64,000 nucleotides of DNA from an uncultured bacterium (GCA_964373885.1 CAYJWM010000002.1:2189-66188), one strand, 5' to 3'. Shown: positions 3,866 to 57,448, numbered from the stretch's first letter. Numbers and translations are program-made. Notes: generated by a model not told the origin, from the sequence alone.

Positions 3866-4018
3866 AACATTTGAAAAAAGATAAACCTTCCGCATTTTTT
3901 CATTGCTATGCCCGCGCGCTGCACTTTTGGCCTTTGATCGCGGCGGGGCGCCTGGTGGCGCGCATGGTGATGAATTTGTGGGACATGTTCGAGAGTTGAA
4001 AGGACGCAAAACGAACTT

Positions 4019-5227
4019 ATGAATTTCACCCAAGTCACTCAGACATTAAGAATTCGCGAATATTATTACATGATGCTGCGTCACAAGCTTTCATTTTTGA
4101 TTGTGACCTGCCTCTCGCTCGCCGTATCGCTCATCCTTGCGTTCACACTTCCGAAAGTTTACCGGGCGGATACCGTTTTGCTTGTCCAGGATGAGGACAT
4201 TTTAAATCCGTTGATTTCCGGTCTCGCCATCGCTCCGTCATTTTCACATCGCATCAGGACGCTGAGGGAAGAGCTGCTTTCCTGGCAGCGCCTGACGCTT
4301 CTCGTGGAAAAGCTCGGCATGGACAAAGGGATCAGGGGGCCTCTTCAGTATGAGCATTTGATTAAAAATTTGAGGGATCATATTGTCATCCGTCTTCAGG
4401 AGGCGCGCATTGTCAGCGTCGGCTTCGAGGGCCCCGATCCCCAGGAAGCTCAGAACATTGTCCAAACACTTGCAGACATCATCATTGAGGGCACGTTAAC
4501 CTCCCAAAGTGTCGAGGCCTCAAGCGCGATTAACTTTATTCAGGGACAGCTGGATGAATACCGCACCAAGCTTGAAAAGTCGGAAGTGGAATTGAGAAAG
4601 TTCAAAGAACTTTACAGCTCCACGCTTCCGGTGGCGACCCATTTAAACGAACAGCTGGTGGCACTTAAGATGATGCTCAATCAGCTCCTGATCGAAAATA
4701 CGGAAGAACACCCGCGCGTGAAACAAACCCGCCAATTGATCAAAGCCCTGGGGGAGCAGCGGGATGCGCAGTTGACTCAGGCACAGAAAGAAGGCGTGGA
4801 GATCGATCCGGCTGAATATGCGAAATTTGTCTCCAGCGTTCCGCTCCAGGAGCAGCAGCTTACGAAACTTCAAAGGGATTATGCCGTCAATGACCGGATT
4901 TACGAGTCGCTTCTTCAGCGCCTTGAAACGGCAAAAATTTCGGAAACTTTGGAAGAGTCGGACAAAGGGCCTAAATTCCGGATTTTGGAGCCGGCCCGGC
5001 TTCCGCTGGAGCCCGTCAAGCCGAAAAAAGGTCTCATTCTCCTGGGGGGGCTTGTGATCGGATTTGCCCTTGGATTCGTGCTCGTGTATTTGCTGGAGCT
5101 GAGCAACACCTCCATTCGCAGTCTCGATGAGGCCAGAGAAGTGCTGGTCCTTCCCATTTTCGGCTCCATTCCGCCAATCAATCCCGAAGAGCTGCTCTTA
5201 GAAGAAAATTTACGGAGGCAGGCGTAA
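4019..5227 (+). CDS. Polysaccharide chain-length determinant (Wzz/GumC-like, PEP-CTERM-locus type)
   Basis: 402 aa. It has an N-terminal TM, a long coiled-coil periplasmic region and a C-terminal TM (LILLGGLVIGFALGFVLVYLL). This is the Wzz architecture, and it sits directly upstream of the ATPase and tyrosine kinase. Confidence 0.75.
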   Translation: MNFTQVTQTLRIREYYYMMLRHKLSFLIVTCLSLAVSLILAFTLPKVYRADTVLLVQDEDILNPLISGLAIAPSFSHRIRTLREELLSWQRLTLLVEKLGMDKGIRGPLQYEHLIKNLRDHIVIRLQEARIVSVGFEGPDPQEAQNIVQTLADIIIEGTLTSQSVEASSAINFIQGQLDEYRTKLEKSEVELRKFKELYSSTLPVATHLNEQLVALKMMLNQLLIENTEEHPRVKQTRQLIKALGEQRDAQLTQAQKEGVEIDPAEYAKFVSSVPLQEQQLTKLQRDYAVNDRIYESLLQRLETAKISETLEESDKGPKFRILEPARLPLEPVKPKKGLILLGGLVIGFALGFVLVYLLELSNTSIRSLDEAREVLVLPIFGSIPPINPEELLLEENLRRQA

Positions 5228-6099
5228 TGTATCACGCCCATTATGGCTTTCGGGAACTCCCGTTTAATCAGACCCCCGATTCATCTTTTTTCTTTCCTTC
5301 CGAGCGCCACAAAACCGCGCTGGATGCGCTTGTGTATGCGATCAAGCAGAGAAAAGGGTTTGTTCTGGTGACGGGGGAGATCGGATCGGGGAAAACCACC
5401 GTGGCCCGCACGCTTCTCAGGAAGCTTGGCAGCCGTGCAAAAACAGCCATGATCACGAATACTTATTTGACGCCCAAGGGGATTATCACCTTGATTCTGG
5501 AAGATCTGGATGTTTCTTATCAGACCGGTTCCAAGGACCGCCTTCTGGTTCAGCTGAATGAGTTTTTGCTCGCGCAGGCCCAGCAGGACTTGGACGTGAT
5601 TGTGCTTGTGGATGAAGCCCAAAACCTCAATCCGCAGTGTCTTGAGGAAATTCGAATGCTTTCGAATCTGGAAACTGAAAAGGAAAAATTAATTCAAATC
5701 ATTTTGATCGGCCAGCCGGAACTGAGAAAAAAGATTGAAACGCCGAGACTGGAGCAGCTGCGTCAGCGAATTGCCATACACTATCATTTGGAACCGCTCA
5801 GCGAGCTCGAGACAAAGGAATATATTCTTCATCGTTTAAATCATGCCAAGGCGAACGGGCGGGATTTCAGCCGCCTTTTTGAAGCGCCTGCGTATGAGTT
5901 GGTTTATCAATATTCGCGGGGCCTGCCGCGTCTTGTGAACAAAGTCTGCGACCACGCACTTTTTACGGGCTGGCTTTACGGCGCGCAATCGATTACCGAG
6001 TCAATTGTTGCAGAAGCCGTTAACGAACTTCATTTCCGGGGGGAAAAAGGGGAAGAAACGGGAGAAAAAAAGCATGAGCAAATTTACAAAAGCGCTTGA
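5227..6099 (+). CDS. ExeA-like AAA ATPase (PEP-CTERM-locus secretion ATPase type)
   Basis: Walker A GEIGSGKTT and Walker B VLVDEAQ. The ending (LSELETKEYILHRL) is ExeA/GspA-like. Confidence 0.75.
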   Translation: MYHAHYGFRELPFNQTPDSSFFFPSERHKTALDALVYAIKQRKGFVLVTGEIGSGKTTVARTLLRKLGSRAKTAMITNTYLTPKGIITLILEDLDVSYQTGSKDRLLVQLNEFLLAQAQQDLDVIVLVDEAQNLNPQCLEEIRMLSNLETEKEKLIQIILIGQPELRKKIETPRLEQLRQRIAIHYHLEPLSELETKEYILHRLNHAKANGRDFSRLFEAPAYELVYQYSRGLPRLVNKVCDHALFTGWLYGAQSITESIVAEAVNELHFRGEKGEETGEKKHEQIYKSA

Positions 6100-7120
6100 G
6101 AAAATTCAAAGCGACAAACAGGAAAAAGCAAAAGAAGCGGTAAAAGCCAAGACAAACGGTTTTGAAATTCCTCAAGACCAAGAAAAAACCAAGACGTTGA
6201 ATTGGGAGCGCGGGATTCGCCAATTGCGCCACACCAATCCCGACACCCGGATGGTCACCTATCATTTTCCCAATGGTCTTTTGGCCGAGCAATACCGAAT
6301 GCTCAGGACAAATTTAAAAAATCAATTGGGAGAAAAGGGCTCGAAGGTGATTTTGTTGTCCAGCTCGATTCACGGGGAAGGGAAAACCATAACGGCGGCC
6401 AATTTGGCGATGACCTTGGCTGAGATGGAGAATACAAAAGTAGCTCTTGTGGACGCCGATTTGAGGCGGGGGAAAGTGGGTGAGTATCTTGGTTTTGAGA
6501 AGGAGCTTCCCGGGCTTTCCAATTTTCTTTCCAACGGGGTAAGTGCGAAAGAAGTCATGGTGCGCAATTCCATTGAAAATCTGATCGTGATCCCGCGCGG
6601 CGAAATCGTGAAAAATCCGTCCGAGCTTGTCAGCTCTCAGAAATTCCGGCTTCTCATCGCCGAGCTTCGCAGCCGCTTTGATTACGTGATCATCGACTCG
6701 CCGCCGATTATGTCTGTTGCCGACGCCGGTATTTTGGGCCGGGAAGCGGACGGGCTTTTGATGGTGATTCAATCCGGCAGGACCCCGAAAAGCGTGATTT
6801 CTCATGCCCACCTTTTGTTTAGCCAAGCGGGGCTTAAAATGCTCGGCTATGTGCTGACGAATGTGGAGTTTCAGTCCGCGGATTACCGGTACCATTACCA
6901 TTATTACAACGATTACGATGAACAGAGCGGCATTCCCAACCGGAGCACGTTTGTCGGCCGCGTGAAATTTTATTTCAAAAAATGCGGGTTTAATTTCGAA
7001 CGCACCGAACAGCAGTTCAACCAATGGTGGGAAAAAAAGTTTTTAAAACGCCACGACGCTTTTGTGGAAGACGACCTCATCCGCCGTCAGAAGCGATCCT
7101 CTGAGCATCGGGACGTTTAA
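6074..7120 (+). CDS. BY-family tyrosine autokinase (CpsD/CapB-like)
   Basis: Start moved to ATG 6074 (MSKFTKALEKIQ). Walker A GEGKT, Walker A' VALVDADLRRG, Walker B DYVIIDSPP. Tyr cluster: ADYRYHYHYYNDYDE. Confidence 0.8.
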   Translation: MSKFTKALEKIQSDKQEKAKEAVKAKTNGFEIPQDQEKTKTLNWERGIRQLRHTNPDTRMVTYHFPNGLLAEQYRMLRTNLKNQLGEKGSKVILLSSSIHGEGKTITAANLAMTLAEMENTKVALVDADLRRGKVGEYLGFEKELPGLSNFLSNGVSAKEVMVRNSIENLIVIPRGEIVKNPSELVSSQKFRLLIAELRSRFDYVIIDSPPIMSVADAGILGREADGLLMVIQSGRTPKSVISHAHLLFSQAGLKMLGYVLTNVEFQSADYRYHYHYYNDYDEQSGIPNRSTFVGRVKFYFKKCGFNFERTEQQFNQWWEKKFLKRHDAFVEDDLIRRQKRSSEHRDV

Positions 7121-7143
7121 TTTTTTAGGAGGTTTTGGAATTT

Positions 7144-8094
7144 ATGGCTAAATGTTTGGTCACAGGCGGGGCGGGTTTTATCGGATCCCATGTGGCGGAC
7201 GCTCTGATCGCCCGCGGGGATCGGGTGCGTGTTTTAGACAATCTCTCGACCGGGAGAAAAGAAAATCTCAGCCGTCACGCTTCGGAAATAGAGCTTTTGG
7301 CGGAAGACCTCCGGGACAAAGAAGCGGTCCGCAAAGCGGTCAAGGGAATCGATTGTGTGTTTCATATCGCAGCGCTTCGTGCGGTGCTGCGTTCCGTGGA
7401 TGATCCCCGCGAAACCAACGACGTGAATGTGAGCGGTACATTAAATCTTCTTCTGGCGGCAAGAGAGGCGGGTGTGAAGCGGGTCATTTTCTCTTCTTCC
7501 TCTTCCGTGTACGGGGACACGGACATTTTTCCTTCCCGCGAAGACGCCCTGCCGCGTCCCGAGTCGCCTTATGCGGCGTCCAAAATCATGGGCGAATATT
7601 ACTGCCGGATTTTTTCACGGTTGTACGGGCTTGAGACGGTTTGTCTCCGGTATTTCAATGTGTTTGGGCCGCGGCAGAACCCGGAGTCCAAGTATTCGGC
7701 GGTGATTCCCATTTTTATCGATTTGTTGCTCAAGGGTGTTTCCCCCGAAATACACTGGGACGGAAAGCAATCACGGGATTTTACATACATCGAAAACGTG
7801 GTCAGTGGAAATTTACTGGCCGCGGAAGCAAAGGGAGTTTCCGGCGAGGTGTTTAATATCGCTTGTCACGAAGAGTTCTCCGTTCTGGAGATTTTTAATC
7901 AATTAAAAGACATTTTGAACAGTGAGAGAGTTAAACCGGTATTCAAGCCGAAGCGGGCCGGAGACGTCCGCCGGTCGTTTGCGGATATCACCAAAGCCCA
8001 GCGATTGCTTGGCTACAAGACAAAAGTGAATTTTCGCGAAGGCCTTAAAGAAACAGTCAAATGGTTTTGCCCTGAACTCTTACCTGCCCGATAA
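7144..8094 (+). CDS. NAD-dependent sugar-nucleotide epimerase (extended SDR; WbpP/TviC-like)
   Basis: GGAGFIGSH Rossmann motif and YAASK catalytic motif. 317 aa from ATG 7144; the ORF-track start at 7135 is TTG. Confidence 0.8.
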   Translation: MAKCLVTGGAGFIGSHVADALIARGDRVRVLDNLSTGRKENLSRHASEIELLAEDLRDKEAVRKAVKGIDCVFHIAALRAVLRSVDDPRETNDVNVSGTLNLLLAAREAGVKRVIFSSSSSVYGDTDIFPSREDALPRPESPYAASKIMGEYYCRIFSRLYGLETVCLRYFNVFGPRQNPESKYSAVIPIFIDLLLKGVSPEIHWDGKQSRDFTYIENVVSGNLLAAEAKGVSGEVFNIACHEEFSVLEIFNQLKDILNSERVKPVFKPKRAGDVRRSFADITKAQRLLGYKTKVNFREGLKETVKWFCPELLPAR

Positions 8095-8104
8095 GGGCAG
8101 GGTA
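8081..8104. repeat. cctgccc hairpin overlapping the epimerase stop codon
   Basis: tacctgccc-gataa-gggcagggta, with the TAA stop in the loop. No U-tract follows, so it is not a canonical terminator. The stem sequence matches the repeats at 20783 and 31884. Confidence 0.55.
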
Positions 8105-15895: not shown

Positions 15896-17842
15896 ATGGT
15901 TTTTGTTGTCACCAATCGGATTTTAAGTTATTTGCCGAATCCCGGGTCATCCGCCAGGGATGCTCATGGTGTGCGCATTTCATCGGCAGCTGTACGGCTC
16001 GGGCTTACGGTTTTTTGCAAGGAACCATTTGTGTTTGCTTGTTCTGAGATTGCTTCGTCCCTTCCTTCGGAAGGGACATTTAAAGGAATCCTATTTAGTC
16101 CTGACGCCGCCGGCGTCAGGGCTTCGGTCGCTTCGCGCCCTCGCAATGACGTTGTTGAAGCAATCCGGAACTCTCATTCCAATTCATTGACCAAAACAAT
16201 GGTTCTGGATGTTTTCCCTGGGACTTCCGCATCAGGCCGTCATTTGAATTTGAACATGAAACAATCCTCTTGGACCGAGTGGCATAAGCAAGCTGAAAAA
16301 GAAGCTCAATTTTACAATCTCCTTGAACTTACGGCCGAGAGCTTTCGACTTGAAAGTGATTCTTTGGGAATCAAGCCTCTTTATCGATCAGAGTTGTCTG
16401 GTGGGACAATATTTGCTTCCCGGCTGCGCGATTTAATTAGTATTTTCCCTGAACTTTCCAAACCCATTGATTCCGTCGCTTTATACGGACTTCTGATGCT
16501 GAGCAGTCCCCCGTCTGATCGAACGTTGCATGAGAAAATTCGTCGGACTTCGACCGGCGCTTGTTATGGATGGGATTCGCAGAACGGGCTCCGCATGACT
16601 CGTGAGCGCCGTTTGAAAGCGCCGAGTGTGGACGCCGATTTAGGCATGGAGCGTGCGCAGGATAGAATTCAAGCGGCATTGAGCTCAAGTTTGAACGCCA
16701 GGACCCAGTCGCTTAAACAACCCGTGATCCTCGCCCTGTCAGGGGGTTACGACTCCCGTCTGATCGCCGCATTTTCGAAAGAACTCGGCATTCCAATCAA
16801 TGCCTATACCTATGGTGAAGCACATCACCGCGAGGTTTATATTGCCAAACTTGTCGCTCAAACACTCAAACTTAATCACCGCGTGATTCCTTACGCTCAA
16901 AATAATTTGTTGTCCCGCTTACCTGTTTATTTGGAGACGGTTGAAGGACAGGCCGATTTAGGAACGGCACAAATTGCGAATATGCTTGATCTTGAAACTG
17001 AAGAAGGGTCCCCGCTTCTGATCGGCTTTTTGGGTGAAACGGTGGCGGGTGAGCATTTGGCTTGGTTAAAGGATTCGGACTTCGATGATTTTAACGGAAT
17101 TTCAGAAGGGATTGTGCGCGGATATGCGCATCGGCAGCAGCTCGACGGTCAACCGTTTACCGGAATGGAGCTTTCACGGGAGGCCTACAAAGAGGAAGTT
17201 TCGAAAGAACTGAGAAAGGACTGCCATCCTTACCAATCCTTGATGATTTGGGATTTGGAAAATCGCCAGCGACGCTATATTGGTGCTCATTGTCAAATGC
17301 TCGGTTCGCACTTCGATGTGATTGCTCCGAATTATGATTTGGAAGTGATTGACGCCTGGTTTTCTCTCCCGCGCATTCCGTTGATGAAAAGACGCTTCTT
17401 TCATCAATTGCTCGAACATTGCTTTCCGGACCTCGCCAAAATTCCGCATGCGGCCGAGCCCCATCCGATTATTCCTAATCTTAAGTATCAGCTCAAACTG
17501 TACGGTCGTTCTCAATTCAGCCGGTTGTTTGCAGCTTTCGGGCAGAATGGAAAACATCCGGATATTGACCGCCTCTGGTGTACGTTAACCGTCAAGCAGG
17601 AGGAACATATGGTTTCCCATGTGGTTCGATGTGGAGATAAATTGGAACGGATGTTTGGGATTCGCCCTGTGAGCGGGTTTGAAGGAATGGTTAGGGGAAA
17701 GCCGCAGGCAGTCAGAAATCTCTTCATGGTTGCCAAATATGCCGAATGGCTTCGCCGGGGGAAAACAGCCGTGCCAAGTTTGCCGCCCGCGACCAATTTG
17801 GAACTTGCCGGTTCGGGCATTTATTCGGGAGGGCATGCATGA
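15896..17842 (+). CDS. Asparagine-synthase-like protein with truncated/absent glutaminase domain (start uncertain)
   Basis: PP-loop LALSGGYDSR. Only the tail of the Ntn domain is recognisable (DSLGIKPLYRS, FASRLRDL). ATG 15896 has a strong AAGGAG RBS, but codons about 50-85 are a REP-like palindrome cluster. Alternative starts are 16199 and 16256. Confidence 0.6.
   Translation: MVFVVTNRILSYLPNPGSSARDAHGVRISSAAVRLGLTVFCKEPFVFACSEIASSLPSEGTFKGILFSPDAAGVRASVASRPRNDVVEAIRNSHSNSLTKTMVLDVFPGTSASGRHLNLNMKQSSWTEWHKQAEKEAQFYNLLELTAESFRLESDSLGIKPLYRSELSGGTIFASRLRDLISIFPELSKPIDSVALYGLLMLSSPPSDRTLHEKIRRTSTGACYGWDSQNGLRMTRERRLKAPSVDADLGMERAQDRIQAALSSSLNARTQSLKQPVILALSGGYDSRLIAAFSKELGIPINAYTYGEAHHREVYIAKLVAQTLKLNHRVIPYAQNNLLSRLPVYLETVEGQADLGTAQIANMLDLETEEGSPLLIGFLGETVAGEHLAWLKDSDFDDFNGISEGIVRGYAHRQQLDGQPFTGMELSREAYKEEVSKELRKDCHPYQSLMIWDLENRQRRYIGAHCQMLGSHFDVIAPNYDLEVIDAWFSLPRIPLMKRRFFHQLLEHCFPDLAKIPHAAEPHPIIPNLKYQLKLYGRSQFSRLFAAFGQNGKHPDIDRLWCTLTVKQEEHMVSHVVRCGDKLERMFGIRPVSGFEGMVRGKPQAVRNLFMVAKYAEWLRRGKTAVPSLPPATNLELAGSGIYSGGHA
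16051..16151. repeat. REP-like palindrome cluster inside the 5' part of the third AsnB-like ORF
   Basis: Two hairpins: gtcccttcc-ttc-ggaagggac (16057-16077) and cctgacgccg-c-cggcgtcagg (16100-16120). They are followed by gcttcggtcgcttcgcgccctcgcaatgacg. Confidence 0.65.
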
Positions 17843-18819
17843 ACGTACTGTTAGTGACTCATGAGTTTGAAAATCAGCATAAGTTTCTTCCCAGCGTTAT
17901 TCGAGAACTTGATGCGCTCGGCGAGCAGTTTGGACGGCGTTACCGGGCGCGTCTTGTCCATGATTACACACCGAATCTCAAACATAAATTATGGGCCCTG
18001 GGCCGGCCGACGGTTGTTATTTCCATGGTCCAATTGAGGCACTTTTTTCCCGCTTGGGCCACGGTTTGGTCCCAACAGAATATTGACAAAGTCGCCGAGT
18101 ACAAAGCGCTTGAGCAGGCCGGGATACCGGTCCCGAAATGGACGGCTGTTTACGAAGGCAATACTCCCGATCTCTCCGGATTTGACGATTTTGTGGTGGT
18201 CAAACCCGCTAGAGGGGGATGGGGCGCTTTGGTCCGGATCATGAAGCGTGACAAAGTCAGCTGGAGGCCGCTTAAGGTTGAAAAACTGGGTGTGGTAAGT
18301 GAAGCCATGGTTGTTCAAACCTATATACACACGGGCCCCAGACCTATGAGTTATCGTGTGGGATCCGTTTTTGGGGAGCCCATTTATGCCTGGACGCATA
18401 CGGCTTCGGACAGCAAAACCCCGTTTCCGGAGACAGACGTCAGGGACGAACGCTTTTTCGCAGGAAAGTCAATTGTAGCGACTGGAAAGGGTACGGTCTA
18501 TAAACTGGGCGTGCCGGATGATGTTCTTGATTTTGCAAGGCGGGCCCATCGTGCTTTTCCCACCATTCCGCTGCTGGGAATGGACATTGTCAGATGTCAA
18601 GCAACGCAAAAACTCTATGTTCTTGAAGTCAATGCAACAGGCGATACATTTCATCTTACCTCAAACGCTGGCCAGCGCATACAGCGCGAGATGGGATTTG
18701 ATGCCTTGAAACAATTCGGGGGCGCTCGCGCGGTGGCGCGCGGAATGTACAACCGCCTTAATGAATGGGCAGGGGTGTGTACTCCGGATCTTGAAGAAAA
18801 GGAAATGATTGCCGTATGA
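17839..18819 (+). CDS. ATP-grasp family ligase, paralogue 1
   Basis: Start at ATG 17839 (ATGA overlap). RimK-like motif order: DKVAEYKALEQAGIPVP, FVVVKPARGGWGALV, VVQTYI, YRVGSVFGEPIYA, LLGMDIV...KLYVLEVNATGD. Confidence 0.7.
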   Translation: MNVLLVTHEFENQHKFLPSVIRELDALGEQFGRRYRARLVHDYTPNLKHKLWALGRPTVVISMVQLRHFFPAWATVWSQQNIDKVAEYKALEQAGIPVPKWTAVYEGNTPDLSGFDDFVVVKPARGGWGALVRIMKRDKVSWRPLKVEKLGVVSEAMVVQTYIHTGPRPMSYRVGSVFGEPIYAWTHTASDSKTPFPETDVRDERFFAGKSIVATGKGTVYKLGVPDDVLDFARRAHRAFPTIPLLGMDIVRCQATQKLYVLEVNATGDTFHLTSNAGQRIQREMGFDALKQFGGARAVARGMYNRLNEWAGVCTPDLEEKEMIAV

Positions 18820-19829
18820 ACGTGCTGCTTGTGACTCATGACTATGAACAGCAAAATGAACTTCTTCCGGATGTGATTCGGGAACTGAACACGCTCGGCG
18901 ACAGATTCGGGCGGCGCTATCGCGCGCGTCTTGTCCATGATTATGCACCGAATCTCAAACATCAATTATGGACTTTGGGCCGACCGACCGTGGTGGTTTC
19001 AATGCTGCCGTTGCGCCGATTTTTTCCTTCTTGGGCCACGATTTTGGCCAATGAGGATATTTATAAAGTTCAGGAGTACACGGCGCTTGAGCGCGCAGGA
19101 ATTCCCATCCCAAAGTGGACGGTTGTGCGGCAGGGAGAGGAGCCGGACCTTAGCGGATTTAATGAGTTCGTGGTGGTGAAACCGGCGCAGGGCGGCTGCG
19201 GGGCTCTTGTGAGAATCATGCGCCGCAATCGGGTTGAATGGCGCCCGCTTGAAGTTAAAAAATTTAACTGGAGCCATATGGATTTGATCGCCCAGGAATA
19301 CGTTCATACGGGGCCGTGGCCCGTGAGCTATCGCGTGGGGACTGTTTTCGGAGAGCCGATTTATGCTTGGCGCATTACGGCGGACCGTTCGCGCCGGCCG
19401 TTTGAAGAAGGGAAGATGGATTCGCATTTTTTTGACGGGCGCACGATAGTGTCTTCTGGAAAAGGATGTACTTTTGATTGGGAAGTGCCCCAGGATGTGT
19501 TTGAGTTGGCGCGCGCCCTTCATGAACGGGCGTTTCCCAATACGCCGCTGCTTGGTTCGGACATCATACGAGACGTCCACTCAGGGAAACTTTATGTTCT
19601 TGAAGTAAACGCCAACGGAGATAATTTTCACCTTACCTCCCGAGTCGCCCAGCGAATTAAACGCGAGTTCAATCTCGATTCAAAAGCGCAATTCGGGGGC
19701 GCTCGCGCGGTGGCGCGCGGAATTTACAGGCGGCTGAATCAATTTGTCTCAAACGGGCGGGTAGATGAATTGAACCACTTACAATCTGACGCTGAAAGGA
19801 TGCCATCTACGATGACTACTTCAGTGTGA
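18816..19829 (+). CDS. ATP-grasp family ligase, paralogue 2
   Basis: ATGA overlap with paralogue 1. Same motif set (FVVVKPAQGGCGALV, AQEYV, LLGSDII...KLYVLEVNANGD). A 35-nt stretch at 19689-19723 is identical to 18712-18746. Confidence 0.7.
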   Translation: MNVLLVTHDYEQQNELLPDVIRELNTLGDRFGRRYRARLVHDYAPNLKHQLWTLGRPTVVVSMLPLRRFFPSWATILANEDIYKVQEYTALERAGIPIPKWTVVRQGEEPDLSGFNEFVVVKPAQGGCGALVRIMRRNRVEWRPLEVKKFNWSHMDLIAQEYVHTGPWPVSYRVGTVFGEPIYAWRITADRSRRPFEEGKMDSHFFDGRTIVSSGKGCTFDWEVPQDVFELARALHERAFPNTPLLGSDIIRDVHSGKLYVLEVNANGDNFHLTSRVAQRIKREFNLDSKAQFGGARAVARGIYRRLNQFVSNGRVDELNHLQSDAERMPSTMTTSV

Positions 19830-19859
19830 ACCCATGAGCAAGAAAGAGAGCGTTTTGAT

Positions 19860-20948
19860 ATGAACGTTTTATTGGTACGCACACACGATCCGGACCAGGA
19901 TTCCATATGGCCGGAAGTTGTGAGGGAACTTCGCGGGTTTGGAGTCCGCGCTCGGGCAGTCTGGGATTCGATTCCACACCTAAAACATCGCTTGTGGGCA
20001 CTCGGACGGCCGACCTATGTCATTGCCTTGAAGCCGATAAGGCGATTTGCGCCTTGGTGGGCCGAAAGATTGCAACAGGTGAGATGTGACAAAATTCAGG
20101 AATATGAATTGCTCGATCGCTCAGGCATTCCGGTTCCGAGATGGATCGCCATTCATCAAGGGGATGTGCCCAACCTTTCCGGGTTCGGTGATTTTGTGGT
20201 TACGAAGCCCGCGGCAGGATGCCGTGGGGCATTTGTGCGCGTGATGCGCCGCGGCCGGGTGCGGTGGCGATATTTCAACCTAGAACATAGAAGGGGAGAA
20301 AGTACGGCGATCGTCGTTCAGGAATATATTTATACGGGGTCAAGACCTGTGAGTTATCGCGTTGCCACATGTTTTGGAGAACCTTATTACGCCTGGAGGA
20401 CAACCGCAGCCGCCTCCCGATTACGATTTGAGGAAGGCCTTAAAGGAGCACATTTTTTTGCCGGAAAGAGCATCGTTTCCACCGGGGAAGGTTGCACCAT
20501 GGATCCGGAAGTTCCGTCAGACGTCATTCAATTCGGGACGCGGGTCCATGAAGCTTTTCCGGATATCCCGCTTCTTTCCATCGATATTATTCGTGACGGC
20601 CGTTCCGGCGCACTTTACGTGCTCGAGTTGAACACTGCCGGATTGATTATGGTCGCGACACCACAAAGTATGAGCCGGATCAAACACGATTTTGGCTTTG
20701 ATCCCTGCGTGCAGTTCGGAGGAGCAAAAGCGGTTGCACGCGGAATTTATAACCGGGTCAAGGGACGGCCCTTCGGGCCGCCACCTGCCCGCGGCACGGC
20801 TGCGCCGCCGCGGGCAGGTACTGCTCCGGCTCCCCCGGGCAAGCCCGGGGCATCCTCCGCTGTCAATCGAATGAGCTCAAAGGACTCTGAGCGCGGCGGA
20901 TCCGTTCGGGATTTAAATACAGTATTAGAGGAAGCTTTGGTTCCATGA
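19860..20948 (+). CDS. ATP-grasp family ligase, paralogue 3 (more divergent, with repeat-derived C-terminal tail)
   Basis: MNVLLVRTHD start. Motifs: FVVTKPAAGCRGAFV, VVQEYI, LLSIDII...ALYVLELNTAG. The last roughly 60 aa (PPARGTAAPPRAGTAPAPPGKPG...) are encoded by palindromic repeats. Confidence 0.65.
   Translation: MNVLLVRTHDPDQDSIWPEVVRELRGFGVRARAVWDSIPHLKHRLWALGRPTYVIALKPIRRFAPWWAERLQQVRCDKIQEYELLDRSGIPVPRWIAIHQGDVPNLSGFGDFVVTKPAAGCRGAFVRVMRRGRVRWRYFNLEHRRGESTAIVVQEYIYTGSRPVSYRVATCFGEPYYAWRTTAAASRLRFEEGLKGAHFFAGKSIVSTGEGCTMDPEVPSDVIQFGTRVHEAFPDIPLLSIDIIRDGRSGALYVLELNTAGLIMVATPQSMSRIKHDFGFDPCVQFGGAKAVARGIYNRVKGRPFGPPPARGTAAPPRAGTAPAPPGKPGASSAVNRMSSKDSERGGSVRDLNTVLEEALVP
20783..20850. repeat. 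Two adjacent GC-rich palindromes (acctgcccgcgg family) inside the 3' end of ATP-grasp paralogue 3
   Basis: acctgcccgcgg-N13-ccgcgggcaggt (20783-20819, 12-bp stem) and ccccgggc-aa-gcccgggg (20833-20850). The loop of the first is the reverse complement of the loop at 31895-31909. Confidence 0.7.
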
Positions 20949-30030: not shown

Positions 30031-30940
30031 GCTTAGCGTTGTCATTTGCACCTATAACCGGGCCGAAAGTTTGTGGGACACGCTTCAGGCGCTTAAGAAC
30101 CAGCGCATCCCCGATGGTTTGGATTGTGAAATTATCGTGGTGGACAACAACAGTAGGGATCGGACAAAAGAGATCGCTTGTCAAGAAAGCCGCGAAAGTC
30201 CGTGGCCAATTCGTTATGTTTTTGAACCCGATCAGGGGGTCAGCCATGCGCGCAATCGCGGAATTTTAGAAGCCAAGGGAGACTTAATCGCGTTTGCGGA
30301 TGACGATATGATTCCCGAGCCGAATTGGATGGATTCGCTTTTAAGGGGTTTTGAGGAGTTTCGCGCCGACTGTGTCGGCGGTCCGGTTCTTCCAATTTGG
30401 GCTCAAGAACCTCCGGCGTGGTTGAGCGATCCAAAACTGAGATTCGGAATGCTCGCGCTCTTGGATCGGGGGGACAAACCGATTGTTGCTGCTAAGACAG
30501 ATTCCAACATCGTATTTGGTGGAAACTCCGCGTATCGGAAATCGCTTTTTCAAGAAGTAGGTTTGTTCCGCACGGATTTGGGCCGCAGGGGCAAAACGCT
30601 CTCGTGCGGTGAGGACAGCGAAATGATCAGGCGCATCATTCATTTGAAAAAGCACGTGGTTTACCTTCCGGGTGCCATCGTGAGACATAAAGTGATGCCC
30701 GAGAGAATGAGTTTAAATTACCTCCGGAAGTGGCATTTCGACGGTGCGCGGTCCACCGCCCGGCTTTCCAAGTTCCGCCGCGGAATTGTTTTGGAACTGA
30801 TTTTGGAATGCGTCAAAAGCGGGTCTGCCGCTTTGATGCGTTACGCATGTTTTGACCGGTTGCGGGCGGTGGGAGCGGAGATTAATTTTTGGTGGAAGCT
30901 GGGAATGCTTGTGGAAATGGTGAATCATGCCAAAAGTTAG
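30023..30940 (+). CDS. Glycosyltransferase family 2 (short type), copy a
   Basis: Start at ATG 30023 (MPKLSVVICTYNR). Motifs IIVVDNNSRDRT and FADDDMIP. Paralogue of 35623-36600. Confidence 0.85.
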   Translation: MPKLSVVICTYNRAESLWDTLQALKNQRIPDGLDCEIIVVDNNSRDRTKEIACQESRESPWPIRYVFEPDQGVSHARNRGILEAKGDLIAFADDDMIPEPNWMDSLLRGFEEFRADCVGGPVLPIWAQEPPAWLSDPKLRFGMLALLDRGDKPIVAAKTDSNIVFGGNSAYRKSLFQEVGLFRTDLGRRGKTLSCGEDSEMIRRIIHLKKHVVYLPGAIVRHKVMPERMSLNYLRKWHFDGARSTARLSKFRRGIVLELILECVKSGSAALMRYACFDRLRAVGAEINFWWKLGMLVEMVNHAKS

Positions 30941-33900
30941 CATTGTGATGCCCACGTACAACCGGGCGGACTATTTAAAGGAAGCCATTGAGTGCGTTCT
31001 CGCTCAGACGTTTACCGATTGGGAGCTTTTTGTGGTGGATGACGGCTCTACGGATCAAACGGAAGAGTTGGTACGTGCGCACGCTTTAAAAGACGAGCGG
31101 ATTTCTTACCTGAAACAGGCCAATGCCGGTTGCAGTGTCGCCCGGAATACGGGACTTCGCCATGCACGTGGGCTGTATGTCGCTTTTCTGGATGATGATG
31201 ACCGCTGGCTTCCGGAAAAGCTTGAAGTTCAAGCGGCTTATTTGGACTCGCGTCCGGAAATCGGATTTTGCTACACGCGCTTTCAAATTTTCCGTTTGGA
31301 AAATGGAAAACGGGTGCTTACAAAAACGTTTCCCGAGTTTCTCACCACGAAGTTTGAGGAGATTCCAGACGTATTTATTGTGCCTTCCACGGTGATGATG
31401 CACAAGCCGCATTTTGACGCCCTGGGCGGATTTAATCCGCGTTACCGGTATGCGGAGGATTTTGATCTATGGCTTCGGTACGCTCAGCGGTGGCAGATTG
31501 GGCCGATTGACCGTGCTTTAGTTTTTACCGTGATGGACAACCGAGAGCACGGAGGGCGCGATCAGATTCTGGTTAATGAAGCTACAAGCGCTATTTTAAA
31601 GAATCTCGAATTGACGCCCCGGTATCGAAATTGTAAGCGGTTGATCCGCGAGGAAATTGCGATCCGCCGTTATGATTCGGGCCGCGAGTACTTGGGTCGG
31701 GCTGACTATTGGCAGGCGCTTAAGTATTTTGCCATGGCTCTTTTCACCGATCCGTTGGTAGGGATTTTCGCCCACCGTCCCGGCGAACCCAGAACGCCCC
31801 GGCGCCGCGGGATGGAATGGGTGCGGCATTTTGGAAAAGCTTATGCGGCTATTTTGGTTTGCGCGCGGAAAGGATTATTCAATACCTGCCCGTGGCGGCG
31901 CAGCCGTGTCACGGGCAGGTGGCAGCGAAGCGAAGCGCAGCCGTCCCTTGACTTAATGGACTTGGCTGTCTTTGGCGGCAAGCCCGCTTTTGGCGAGCCG
32001 CTTCATGTGGGTTGCCCAAACATCGGAGCGCGGAATCGTTTGCAAAACCGGATGGATGACATTTTGAATCGGCGGTGGCTTACCAACAACGGGTGTTATG
32101 TGCGAGAGTTCGAGCAGAGGATTTGTGACGTTCTCGGCGTGAAACACTGCATCGCCATCTGTAATGGCACGGTCGCATTGGAAATCGCAATCCGCGCCTT
32201 GGGTTTGGTGGGAGAAGTAATTGTTCCTTCGTTTACAGCTCCGGCAACCGTTCACGCCCTTTCATGGCTCGGGATTAAACCCGTCTTTTGTGACATTGAT
32301 CCGGAAACGCTTTGTCTAGATCCAAAAGCGGCGGAGAAAAAAATTACTTCAAAGACCACCGGCATTCTTGCGGTTCATTTGTTTGGCAGGCCTTGCGATG
32401 TGAAAGCGCTTGAGGAAATAAGCGCAGCCGGAGGGCTTAAGCTTCTTTATGACTCTGCCCATGCGTTCGGTTGTTCCGTAGGAGGGCGGATGATCGGCAA
32501 TTTCGGCAATGCCGAAGTGTTCAGCTTTCATGCGACCAAGTTCTTAAATGCATTTGAAGGCGGCGCTGTGGTGACGAATGATGATTCGCTGGCCGAGCGG
32601 CTCCGGTTGATGCGTAATTTCGGCTATACCGACTCGGACAAAATTGAGTCTTTCGGAACCAATGGAAAGATGAGCGAGATTTCGGCGGCCATGGGCATTA
32701 CCTCTTTAGAGTCTATGGATGAGTTCGTCAGAAGCAATCGCCTGAATTTCCAATTATATCAAGAAGGATTGGAAGGGATCCCGGGCATTGCGCTGATGCC
32801 GTATGATTTGACCGAAAAGAACAATTTTCAATATGTCGTACTGGATGTCGATGAGGAAGCCGCCAGGATCAGCCGTGATGCACTGATTCAGGTTTTGCGG
32901 CAGGAAAATGTGCTTGCGCGCCGTTATTTTCACCCCGGATGTCACAGAATGCGGCCTTATCTTTCGGTCGAACACTCCGCATCGCTTCCCATCACGGAAC
33001 GCGTTTCGGAGCGTCTTTTACAGCTGCCGACAGGAACTTCAATAGGCCCATCGGAAATTAAAACCGTCTGCGAGATCATCAAAACCGCAGTGGAAGGAGC
33101 CGAGGAAATCTGTGCTCATTTGGAGAGGAAAGCCCGTGTTTTGTCTCAGGCAAATGGGGAACAAAAGACATATCCCGCAGTCAGCATCATTATCCCGACT
33201 TATAACCGCCCGAGTTATCTGGCCAAAGCGATTGAAAGTATCAGGGATCAAACCTACAAAGATTGGGAACTGATCGTGGTCGATGACGGCTCTGTGACCG
33301 GCGACATTAAAACGGTTGTCGAACACTACGCCGAGCAGGATGATCGCATTCGATATATTCGGCGGCCCAATGGGAGCTGGTATCGCGCGAGAAATACAGG
33401 GATTCGAAACGCAAGGGGCAAATATATTGCTTTTTTGGATGATGACGATTACTGGCTGAAAGAAAAACTTGAAAAGCAAGTCGCTTTTATGGACGCTCAC
33501 CCGGAAATTGGGATCAACTATACCTTGTTTCAGGTATATCGATCCCGCAATGGTCGATCGGAACCTGCGAAGGTTTTCCCAAGATGCTCCGTCGCAGGGA
33601 TAGAAGGGTTTTTGGATGCTTTTGTGCCCATTTCCGCCGTGATGATTCGAAGAGCATGCCTGGATGGAATGAGGTGGTTTCCAGCCCGCTACCCGATTTC
33701 GGGAGATTTTGAGTTTTATCTCCGCTTTGCAAGGCACTGGCCCGTAGGTGGCATTGAAGAAATTTTAACGGCGACAACAATGGACGAGCGCGATCACGCC
33801 GGAAAAGACCTCGTTTTGGTCTACCACGATTCAGTGAAAGTGCTTAAGGACCTTAAGGGCACTCGTGATTTTAGCAAATGTCGGTGGCTTCTTACTTGGC

Positions 33901-34154
33901 ACATGGCCCTGCGCTACTATTTATTGGCACGGTTTTTTTTGGATCAAGGAAGCTACTGGAAGGCCGCCGAATATTTTTTGCACGCACTGTTGGCAAATCC
34001 TTTGGTTGGACTGGCGGTCCGCAGGCCCGAGGAAAAGGGGCTTAAGCTTGGGTTTCGAGTGGTCAAGGCTTATGCGGCCGTCTTAGTTTGCGCATGGAAA
34101 GGTTTTTTTTGTTCAGGACGCCATATTTTTCCGGCGGCGGGAGTCAATCAATGA
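30927..34154 (+). CDS. Tri-domain fusion: GT2 - DegT/DnrJ/EryC1-type PLP aminotransferase - GT2
   Basis: Uninterrupted 1075-codon ORF. GT2-A: MPKVSIVMPTYNR, VVDDGSTD, FLDDDDRW. Aminotransferase from about 31956: GTVALEIA, FSFHATK (PLP lysine). GT2-B from about 33170: VSIIIPTYNR, VVDDGS, FLDDDDYW. There is no in-frame stop and no in-frame ATG at the second junction. Confidence 0.85.
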   Translation: MPKVSIVMPTYNRADYLKEAIECVLAQTFTDWELFVVDDGSTDQTEELVRAHALKDERISYLKQANAGCSVARNTGLRHARGLYVAFLDDDDRWLPEKLEVQAAYLDSRPEIGFCYTRFQIFRLENGKRVLTKTFPEFLTTKFEEIPDVFIVPSTVMMHKPHFDALGGFNPRYRYAEDFDLWLRYAQRWQIGPIDRALVFTVMDNREHGGRDQILVNEATSAILKNLELTPRYRNCKRLIREEIAIRRYDSGREYLGRADYWQALKYFAMALFTDPLVGIFAHRPGEPRTPRRRGMEWVRHFGKAYAAILVCARKGLFNTCPWRRSRVTGRWQRSEAQPSLDLMDLAVFGGKPAFGEPLHVGCPNIGARNRLQNRMDDILNRRWLTNNGCYVREFEQRICDVLGVKHCIAICNGTVALEIAIRALGLVGEVIVPSFTAPATVHALSWLGIKPVFCDIDPETLCLDPKAAEKKITSKTTGILAVHLFGRPCDVKALEEISAAGGLKLLYDSAHAFGCSVGGRMIGNFGNAEVFSFHATKFLNAFEGGAVVTNDDSLAERLRLMRNFGYTDSDKIESFGTNGKMSEISAAMGITSLESMDEFVRSNRLNFQLYQEGLEGIPGIALMPYDLTEKNNFQYVVLDVDEEAARISRDALIQVLRQENVLARRYFHPGCHRMRPYLSVEHSASLPITERVSERLLQLPTGTSIGPSEIKTVCEIIKTAVEGAEEICAHLERKARVLSQANGEQKTYPAVSIIIPTYNRPSYLAKAIESIRDQTYKDWELIVVDDGSVTGDIKTVVEHYAEQDDRIRYIRRPNGSWYRARNTGIRNARGKYIAFLDDDDYWLKEKLEKQVAFMDAHPEIGINYTLFQVYRSRNGRSEPAKVFPRCSVAGIEGFLDAFVPISAVMIRRACLDGMRWFPARYPISGDFEFYLRFARHWPVGGIEEILTATTMDERDHAGKDLVLVYHDSVKVLKDLKGTRDFSKCRWLLTWHMALRYYLLARFFLDQGSYWKAAEYFLHALLANPLVGLAVRRPEEKGLKLGFRVVKAYAAVLVCAWKGFFCSGRHIFPAAGVNQ
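31884..31920. repeat. acctgcccgtg hairpin repeat forming the linker between GT2-A and the aminotransferase domain
   Basis: acctgcccgtg-N15-cacgggcaggt (11-bp stem). The loop gcggcgcagccgtg is the reverse complement of the loop of the 20783 element, so this is the same family in opposite orientation. Confidence 0.7.
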
Positions 34155-56692: not shown

Positions 56693-57448
56693 ATGGATGC
56701 TGGAAATCAGGCGGATTTCAGAGAGTTTTATAGCGATATTAAGGAAGAAGTGAAACTGCTTTTATTTTTCAGGCGCTATCAAAAAGCTTTGGAAGGTGAA
56801 ACGCCATGGGAAGAAAGCTTGGCGCTTACGACCGCCAAGCTTTCGACGAGACTTGCGGTGTCATGGAGGCGTTTTTTTAAACGGACCCTTGATGTGGTTG
56901 TGTCTGCTTCAGGTCTTCTGTTGGCGCTGCCGGCCATGGCGCTGATCGGAATTGCGATTAAGCTGGATTCTCGCGGACCGATTGTATTCAAGCAGGGCAG
57001 GGTCGGCATTCGCGGCAAAGTGTTCACCATGTTTAAATTTCGCACCATGCGTCAGAACGCCGAAGAGATGACAGGTCCCATTTGGGCCAGGGAAGATGAT
57101 CCCCGAATCACAAGGGTAGGGAATTTTTTGCGCAAGACCCATTTGGATGAGCTCCCGCAGCTGTTTAATGTGTTGAAGGGTGAAATGAGCTTGGTGGGGC
57201 CGCGTCCGGAGCGCCCCTGTTTTGTGAATGAGTTTCGAAAAGTGATCCTGCATTACGAGAGACGCCTTTGCGTGAAACCGGGGATTACGGGCCTTGCGCA
57301 GATTAAACGTGGATACGACGAAACCATTAAGGATGTTCGTAAAAAGGTAAGGTATGATTTGCTGTACGTTCGAAAAATGTGTCCTGTTCTTGATGCGATG
57401 GTGCTCGGGATGACCGTGGCAGCCGTTGTGTTGCGGACGGGCAGGTAA
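56693..57448 (+). CDS. Undecaprenyl-phosphate sugar phosphotransferase (bacterial sugar transferase family, EpsB/WbaP C-terminal type)
   Basis: GGGGAGG RBS. One TM, then [41 protein letters not shown]. Confidence 0.9.

Follow-up and report, generated by a model that had tools for sequence, protein, structure and literature searches.

The DNA analysed here, hereafter the window, is a stretch of 64,000 nucleotides (nt) from contig CAYJWM010000002.1 (positions 2189 to 66188) of assembly GCA_964373885.1, obtained from an uncultured bacterium. It contains an open reading frame (ORF) in which a glycosyltransferase of family 2 (GT2), a DegT-type aminotransferase and a second GT2 are combined, and in which the first GT2 part is connected to the aminotransferase by a short linker that is encoded by a palindromic repeat. 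Pfam searches with the 1075 amino acid (aa) ORF matched PF00535 twice (GT2, at both ends) and PF01041 (DegT/DnrJ/EryC1 aminotransferase, residues 371 to 718). The parts of the ORF are given below with the evidence used to delimit them; loci and proteins compared with the window carry numbers beginning with L and P, respectively, and the copy of the repeat in this ORF is designated W1.

30927 to 34154, + strand: fused ORF of 1075 aa, comprising GT2, repeat-encoded linker, DegT-type aminotransferase and GT2 (ORF list, Pfam)
30927 to 31883, + strand: body of a former stand-alone GT2 gene, aa 1 to 319, ending ...KGLFN (L001 ...AWKGLFNWNG*, homologue coverage, DNA alignment A6)
31884 to 31952, + strand: W1, a 5'-truncated copy of a three-hairpin repeat (pattern match, folding, covariance model R1)
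31884 to 31920, + strand: hairpin B of W1 (sequence reading)
31921 to 31945, + strand: hairpin C of W1 (sequence reading)
31946 to 31952, + strand: terminal CCTTGAC of W1 (sequence reading)
31956 to 34154, + strand: aminotransferase-GT2 part, from a conserved Met (MDLAVFGG...) (L001 N-terminus, homology to P0002 and P0003)

The linker DNA opens with the hairpin acctgcccgtg-N15-cacgggcaggt, which has an 11-bp stem and is followed by ggcagcgaagcgaagcgcagcc. Positions 31884 to 31920 read ACCTGCCCGTG-GCGGCGCAGCCGTGT-CACGGGCAGGT, and GGCAGCGAAGCGAAGCGCAGCC and GTCCCTTGAC come after them. Within the ORF the linker is translated as NTCPWRRSRVTGRWQRSEAQPS, an Arg-rich peptide of about 25 aa that its composition suggests to be flexible; the peptide encoded by W1 is TCPWRRSRVTGRWQRSEAQPSLD. 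The junction-spanning peptides of the ORF are GLFNTCPWR and WQRSEAQPSLDLMDLAVFGGK, and the full span is GLFNTCPWR...SLDLMDLAVFGGK. A first-pass annotation of the window had described this hairpin and linker peptide and had assigned Met 31956 to the aminotransferase, and these readings were confirmed, Met 31956 being the conserved Met of the aminotransferase part. That annotation also proposed folding the element, and 87 nt of the W1 region gave -39.7 kcal/mol (z = -3.0), with -38.5 kcal/mol (z about -3) for the other strand. The linker DNA belongs to a dispersed, GC-rich, non-coding mobile repeat family of Omnitrophota, whose full unit, 99 or 105 nt long, is built from three hairpins set side by side (A, B and C) and a CCTTGAC terminus. 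W1 has neither hairpin A nor the spacer, and model R1 scored it at 40.6 bits with a match confined to hairpins B and C.

The fusion is a derived state, and three relatives keep the genes separate. The closest whole-protein homologues are aminotransferase-GT2 proteins without the N-terminal GT2 part (P0002, 78 % identity; P0003, from a Candidatus Omnitrophica metagenome-assembled genome (MAG), 59 % identity). For the N-terminal GT2 part, every close homologue is a stand-alone protein of 314 to 324 aa that ends before the linker, and these proteins cover 93 % of a 343-aa query that ends with the linker. As the first-pass annotation had supposed, the linker is repeat DNA; it is no conserved stretch of protein, and homologues are without it. 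In L001 the upstream gene ends ...AWKGLFNWNG-TGA and is overlapped by the downstream ATG (ATGGGTGA), and the downstream gene has the N-terminus MGELRELRKSKLERDLMNLAVFGG. The GT2 and aminotransferase-GT2 genes of L002 overlap by 14 nt, and a contig from ENA provides the third relative with separate genes, in the same layout as L001 and L002. The aminotransferase-GT2 gene of this ENA contig (ERZ27297570) is split into ORFs of 136 aa (3880 to 4290) and 599 aa (4315 to 6114), a split that may reflect a frameshift, a stop or an error of gene calling. Two further close relatives, L158 and L159, have a pair of neighbouring GT2 genes, both stand-alone, and as they have no aminotransferase they say nothing about the junction.

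That the junction is an artefact of assembly or sequencing, either a chimeric join or a frameshift at a GC-rich palindrome, is very improbable. Copies of the repeat do lie at contig ends, at L086 1 to 63 and 7623 to 7703, L088 5626 to 5700 and L156 1 to 100 (a single-cell assembly of Candidatus Omnitrophus fodinae, and metagenome contigs), where the assemblies are broken, and the repeat therefore breaks short-read assemblies. However, the junction DNA in L003 (Logan ERR3478686) is identical to that of the window, and three assemblies encode a fusion protein with the same linker (P0001; P0124, whose NCBI contig measures 69.5 kb; and P0125, from GCA_947085775.1), with one or two residue differences between these proteins in other parts of the gene. 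Public gene calls of the fusion protein start later than the window ORF, and exact look-ups gave no match because gene callers had chosen this later start; the protein was recovered via cluster members.

In a DNA alignment (A6), the window and L001 are collinear on both sides of the junction, as far as ...TTATTCAAT before it and from TGACTTAATG onwards after it. Between these blocks, 45 nt of L001 (positions 61 to 105) stand against 65 nt of element sequence in the window, a net gain of 20 nt. The 45 nt that were replaced hold the last three codons of the GT2 gene (WNG), its TGA stop and, from the aminotransferase-GT2 gene, the ancestral start together with the ~14 opening codons. With 20 nt gained the +1 offset between the two frames disappears, and with the TGA also gone the result is one GT2-aminotransferase-GT2 ORF of 1075 aa. 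In all likelihood the linker is a truncated copy of the mobile repeat that took the place of the stop/start junction between two genes, once separate, and so fused both.

The first-pass annotation had attributed the fusion to loss of a stop codon across an intergenic repeat. This holds insofar as the repeat made the fusion and a stop was lost, but the genes of the relatives overlap and have no intergenic repeat at their junction. Loss of the stop by a point mutation or small indel, across a repeat already lying between the two genes, is accordingly judged improbable. Some copies of the family are intergenic or at gene ends (L019, L048, L129, L130 and L133), and forward frame 3 of the element ends in cctTGAc, which is usable as a stop. 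Against this, the three relatives have overlapping stop and start codons with no spacer and no repeat, and W1, without its hairpin A, abuts GT2 coding sequence at a site from which 45 nt of host sequence, including the downstream start, are gone. A deletion or a replacement is therefore needed, and not a point change.

The right end of W1 abuts TTAATG, exactly where an element inserted after a host (G/T)TGAC would end, and this end together with the missing hairpin A makes a two-step route, insertion and then deletion, the simplest; it is the route that we infer. In the first step, a full element would have entered the downstream gene in frame and at its 5' end, after the host (G/T)TGAC found before TTAATG. 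The intermediate allele would have read ...GGAACGTGAC / AGCGGAGG...CCCTTGAC / TTAATG (slashes mark the ends of the element), with the TGA still present. In the second step, a deletion of ~91 nt, from TTCAAT to the foot of hairpin B and at CAAT/CAGT microhomology, would have taken out hairpin A along with both the start and the stop codon.

The repeat was found at other loci, as the first-pass annotation had expected. The family consensus is composed of AGCGGAGGATGCCCCGGGCTTGCCCGGGGTATCCGGAGCAGT, ACCTGCCCGTGGTTTCATGCCACGGGCAGGT, GGCCGAGCGAAGCGAGGTC and CCTTGAC, in that order, and copies fold as three hairpins at -47 to -76 kcal/mol. The ends of the element, AGCGGAGG... (5') and ...CCCTTGAC (3'), are not inverted repeats; hairpin A is preceded by ~8 nt at the 5' end and hairpin C is followed by 7 nt at the 3' end, and both are backed by covariation. 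Compensatory change was present in 16 of the 37 stem pairs, a count reached in none of 500 shuffles, and slid controls gave 1 to 7 pairs. The GC content of the element is 70 to 78 %, against a background of ~50 %. Across 31 copies the left flank consists of T (68 %), T (84 %), C (65 %), A (100 %) and C (100 %), while the right flank is unconserved; the left flank varies between CAC, TAC, GAC and AAC among copies, and the right end of the element is always GAC.

Copies came from two scans of public collections and from model R1. A specific pattern, consisting of hairpin B followed by GGC and then CCTTGAC, recovered 33 metagenome loci, all of them true members. A pattern for the hairpin only was run against a genome collection, in which most matches were chance palindromes in GC-rich genomes, and at least six true loci with matching flanks were present among the matches listed, on contigs of Candidatus Omnitrophus fodinae SCGC AAA011-A17 and of another MAG, three in each. 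The flanking DNA is unrelated across all 33 metagenome and at least six genome loci. Covariance model R1, applied to ~303 kb of related loci, gave 49 matches, which include palindromic reverse-strand matches and duplicate loci and correspond to 40-odd distinct copies; L001 and L002 had no match. If copies truncated by a contig end are set aside, W1 is the sole copy without hairpin A.

The copies also differ from one another. Of 37, five carry hairpin B with its loop in reverse-complemented form (L025 3303 to 3333, L134 3964 to 3994, L124 7588 to 7618, L130 12394 to 12424 and L048 6728 to 6758; for example GGCATGGAACC compared with GGTTCCATGCC), with the orientation of hairpins A and C unchanged. 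Such flip/flop of the loop of a perfect palindrome suggests template switching or recombination within the hairpin. At L140 7910 to 8079 and L142 8808 to 8977, an extra hairpin of ~60 nt (gggccagtacttgccgtgggaaac...gtttccctacggcaatgt) lies within the element, with the spacer on one side and hairpin B on the other; this hairpin, too, is a multiple of three in length and is read through in the host ORF, and it may be a second small element that uses the same route.

The second copy in the window, W2, is full-length and lies on the opposite strand, in the 3' part of an ATP-grasp-like gene. The features at this site are as follows.

20757 to 20861, - strand: W2, full-length copy of 105 nt with hairpins A, B and C and TTGAC (R1 match, empty-site orthologue, paralogue alignment A3)
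19860 to 20948, + strand: host ORF of W2, ATP-grasp-like, 362 aa, the last of three tandem paralogues (Pfam, paralogue alignment)
20862 to 20866, - strand: host pentanucleotide TTGAC directly 5' of W2, TTTAC at the empty site, presumed target motif (empty/filled comparison)

W2 scored 95.8 bits across the full R1 model and is in frame with its host, the tail of which it lengthens by 35 aa. The orthologue P0122 (locus L157, in the same 90 %-identity cluster) is shorter by exactly 35 aa, or 105 nt. The empty site in L157 reads ...AACCGGGTA / AATCGG... and the filled site in the window reads ...AACCGGGTC / 105 nt / AATCGA...; in the orientation of the element the site is TT(T/G)AC / AGCGG...CCCTTGAC / CCGGTT. 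W2 is a precise 105-nt insertion after TT(T/G)AC; apart from an AC that is uninformative, the target is not duplicated, as judged from this one empty/filled site.

When W1 and W2 were aligned, they were in opposite orientation and their loops were reverse complements of each other, as had been claimed in the first-pass annotation for the hairpin at 20783 to 20819, and their flanks bear out this orientation; the unit common to both is longer than was claimed, and extends past hairpin B via a second small hairpin to GCCGTCCCTTGAC. The differences between the stems of W1 and W2 are compensatory (T-A in one, C-G in the other). The pattern ACCTGCCCGYG-N8-20-CRCGGGCAGGT matched the window twice, at 20783 and 31884, and had no match in any of 100 shuffles. 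A palindrome due to chance, or a hairpin resulting incidentally from codon choice under selection for a functional linker peptide, is hardly credible: only the open reading frame speaks for it, and the shuffles, the homologues without a linker, the same DNA in the opposite orientation and another frame at 20757 to 20861, and the occurrence of the element in five frames in unrelated proteins all stand against it.

Both W1 and W2 have an enlarged hairpin-B loop (GGCGGCGCAGCCGTG) that is specific to their lineage. Their hairpins C differ, one being a 25-nt and the other a 19-nt variant; both variants are also found in other lineages, and modules therefore appear to recombine between copies. The three tandem ATP-grasp-like paralogues (17746 to 20948) are ~50 % identical and follow three asparagine-synthase-like genes, and this array is part of a polysaccharide gene cluster that is very large and contains many paralogues of GT2. 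Gene gain and loss, including loss or absence of the aminotransferase, was seen in the related polysaccharide cluster of L157, L158 and L159.

The first-pass annotation regarded elements of this kind as normally intergenic, but ORF analysis and Pfam placed about a third or more of the copies in frame within bona fide genes. Many copies lie wholly within long ORFs, in both orientations and in five different reading frames. The hosts recognised by Pfam are single genes, encoding transaldolase, GT2, RsmA/KsgA, TrpE/PabB, cytochrome P450, glutathione synthetase, PLD-like and ORF6N proteins, and the inserts fall within a domain or between domains of one host protein. Alignment of the transaldolase host with PDB 1VPX paired query residues 1 to 36 with chain residues 13 to 48, and query residues 70 to 243 with chain residues 49 to 222, and the insert therefore separates residues that are neighbours in the solved structure. 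Of the 31 copies that could be measured, 26 are a multiple of three in length (99 nt, 14 copies; 105 nt, 8 copies; 87, 102, 108 and 111 nt, one copy each); the remaining copies, of 98, 100, 101, 101 and 107 nt, are all outside validated genes. The consensus is free of stops in four of six frames, and with a length divisible by three, copies therefore persist in genes as translated in-frame inserts. A census of peptides encoded by the element, made with a word-indexed search, found four small ORFs only, and a HMMER search with the 36-aa W2 peptide, a query too short and low in complexity, gave no matches. At L126 2156 to 2261 and L147 650 to 753, a copy lies exactly at the boundary of two co-directional ORFs, where the upstream ORF passes through the element and appears to stop at the terminal cctTGAc; the element may thus supply stop codons as well as remove them.

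One alternative is that the hairpin in the fused ORF was retained as a functional cis-element of the mRNA or DNA, acting for example in processing or stability of the transcript, in pausing of translation or in cistron coupling, with the continuity of the ORF incidental and the downstream part made from ATG 31956. Stems kept by compensatory changes across the family, a very stable structure and the retained Met 31956 are consistent with such a role. It is nevertheless unlikely. A scan for promoters and terminators found no promoter-like and no terminator-like site at W1, and no ribosome-binding sequence is evident by eye upstream of 31956. Rfam 15 had no gathering-level match in the window, and at E<=10 on 20700 to 20900 it gave only chance-level matches (E>=0.13). 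The junction has no in-frame stop, and ribosomes from the GT2 part must therefore read through it; the occurrence of the element in unrelated enzymes in five frames argues against a role in regulation that is specific to this locus.

Elements in the style of IS608 and ISDra2 have non-inverted ends and hairpins near both ends, and insert 3' of a short motif with no target duplication. The Omnitrophota repeat resembles miniature elements of the IS200/IS605 type in that its ends are not inverted repeats, the one empty/filled site is without target duplication, hairpins lie near both ends, insertion is 3' of a specific motif of 4 to 5 nt, and the 3' end carries a motif related to the target. These features suggest that the element is mobilised in trans by a single-strand transposase of the IS200/IS605 type. 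Among the loci searched there was no Y1 transposase or TnpB with matching ends, and the likeness is therefore a lead and not a claim of membership. The byps of yeast mitochondria, reported by Lang and colleagues in 2014, are reportedly GC elements that the ribosome skips, so that the frame need not hold. They are likewise GC-rich palindromic mobile inserts in coding sequence, but the in-gene Omnitrophota copies are divisible by three and stop-free, which indicates translation and not bypass.

The closest likeness in behaviour is to the Rickettsia palindromic elements (RPE), which were reported by Ogata and colleagues in 2000 and which two papers describe as inserts of ~100 to 150 bp that lie in frame in unrelated housekeeping genes (PMC10969869, PMC3184786). 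Both are dispersed palindromic repeats of which many in-frame copies add a peptide without destroying the host ORF. In contrast to RPE, the Omnitrophota family is GC-rich, with three hairpins, a fixed TTGAC terminus, a TTNAC left flank and copies that are read in five frames, and a truncated copy of it also joins two genes. Homology in sequence to RPE is unlikely, given the different phylum and the high GC content, and the likeness would lie in behaviour. Intragenic copies of BRE, ERIC and BOX are documented, less often than for RPE (PMC3184786, PMC3733652). The family is also like REP/BIME, RAYT and the MITEs, miniature transposable elements with inverted repeats (ERIC, BOX, RUP, Correia, BRE and Nezha), as these too are short structured repeats fused to or within ORFs. 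It differs from REP, extragenic palindromes of 20 to 40 nt that flank a RAYT gene, in its longer unit (99 to 105 nt), the lack of a GTAG/CGTC head in the consensus and a far higher intragenic fraction, and from a classical MITE in having neither terminal inverted repeats nor a target-site duplication. A full-text literature search found no paper tying Omnitrophota to palindromic repeats.

Several points weigh against the origin of the linker proposed here, a mobile repeat that replaced the junction of two genes. The 64-kb window holds only two copies, W1 and W2. L001, the closest relative with similarity at the DNA level in the flanks, gives only 60 nt of the upstream gene, and none of the loci compared showed an allele in which a full element lies between genes that are still separate. 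A one-step replacement with microhomology on both sides fits equally well as insertion followed by deletion. Internal initiation at ATG 31956 is possible, the 1075-aa product being predicted from the ORF only. With regard to mobility, tblastn with IS608 and IS200 TnpA queries, a weak test, found nothing below E=0.01 in ~370 kb of loci.

One more site in the window had been assigned to the family in the first-pass annotation, as a reduced form of the repeat on the stop codon of the epimerase gene.

8081 to 8104, + strand: small hairpin over the epimerase stop codon, with membership of the family not demonstrable (R1, alignment statistics, folding)

This assignment was not upheld. The site has only the 10-mer TACCTGCCCG in common with the family, R1 made no report for it with filters off and at E<=10, its local alignment score was equalled by 5 to 10 % of random window segments, and the z-score of its fold was only -1.8. 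A 9-mer, ACCTGCCCG/CGGGCAGGT, occurs at 8082 to 8090 and 57438 to 57446, by the stop codons of the ORFs at 7135 to 8094 and 56693 to 57448. These two sites were also rejected as members, since two extra matches against 0.46 expected are not significant and R1 recognises neither.

The repeats described here apparently represent an undescribed, RPE-like family of translated palindromic repeats in Omnitrophota, belonging to a known kind of element. A bolder reading, held only tentatively and considered more doubtful than not, is that they form a 'coding-compatible' miniature transposon family, in which length, stop-free frames and TTNAC targeting would have evolved for spread in genes, in genomes assumed to be gene-dense; mobilised in trans by an IS200/IS605-type enzyme, such a family would be a recurrent source of loops, tails, linkers and gene fusions. 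With the separate-gene relatives, the empty site of W2 and a junction resolved to the base, the window offers a before-and-after case in which a selfish repeat builds the gene of a multidomain enzyme. In-frame colonisation of genes by small repeats would then reach beyond Rickettsia and the few other lineages in which it is documented. In the annotations of MAGs the inserts give rise to unusual segments of low complexity and to ORFs that are fused or extend too far, and copies of the repeat, which break assemblies, could serve as markers of lineage.

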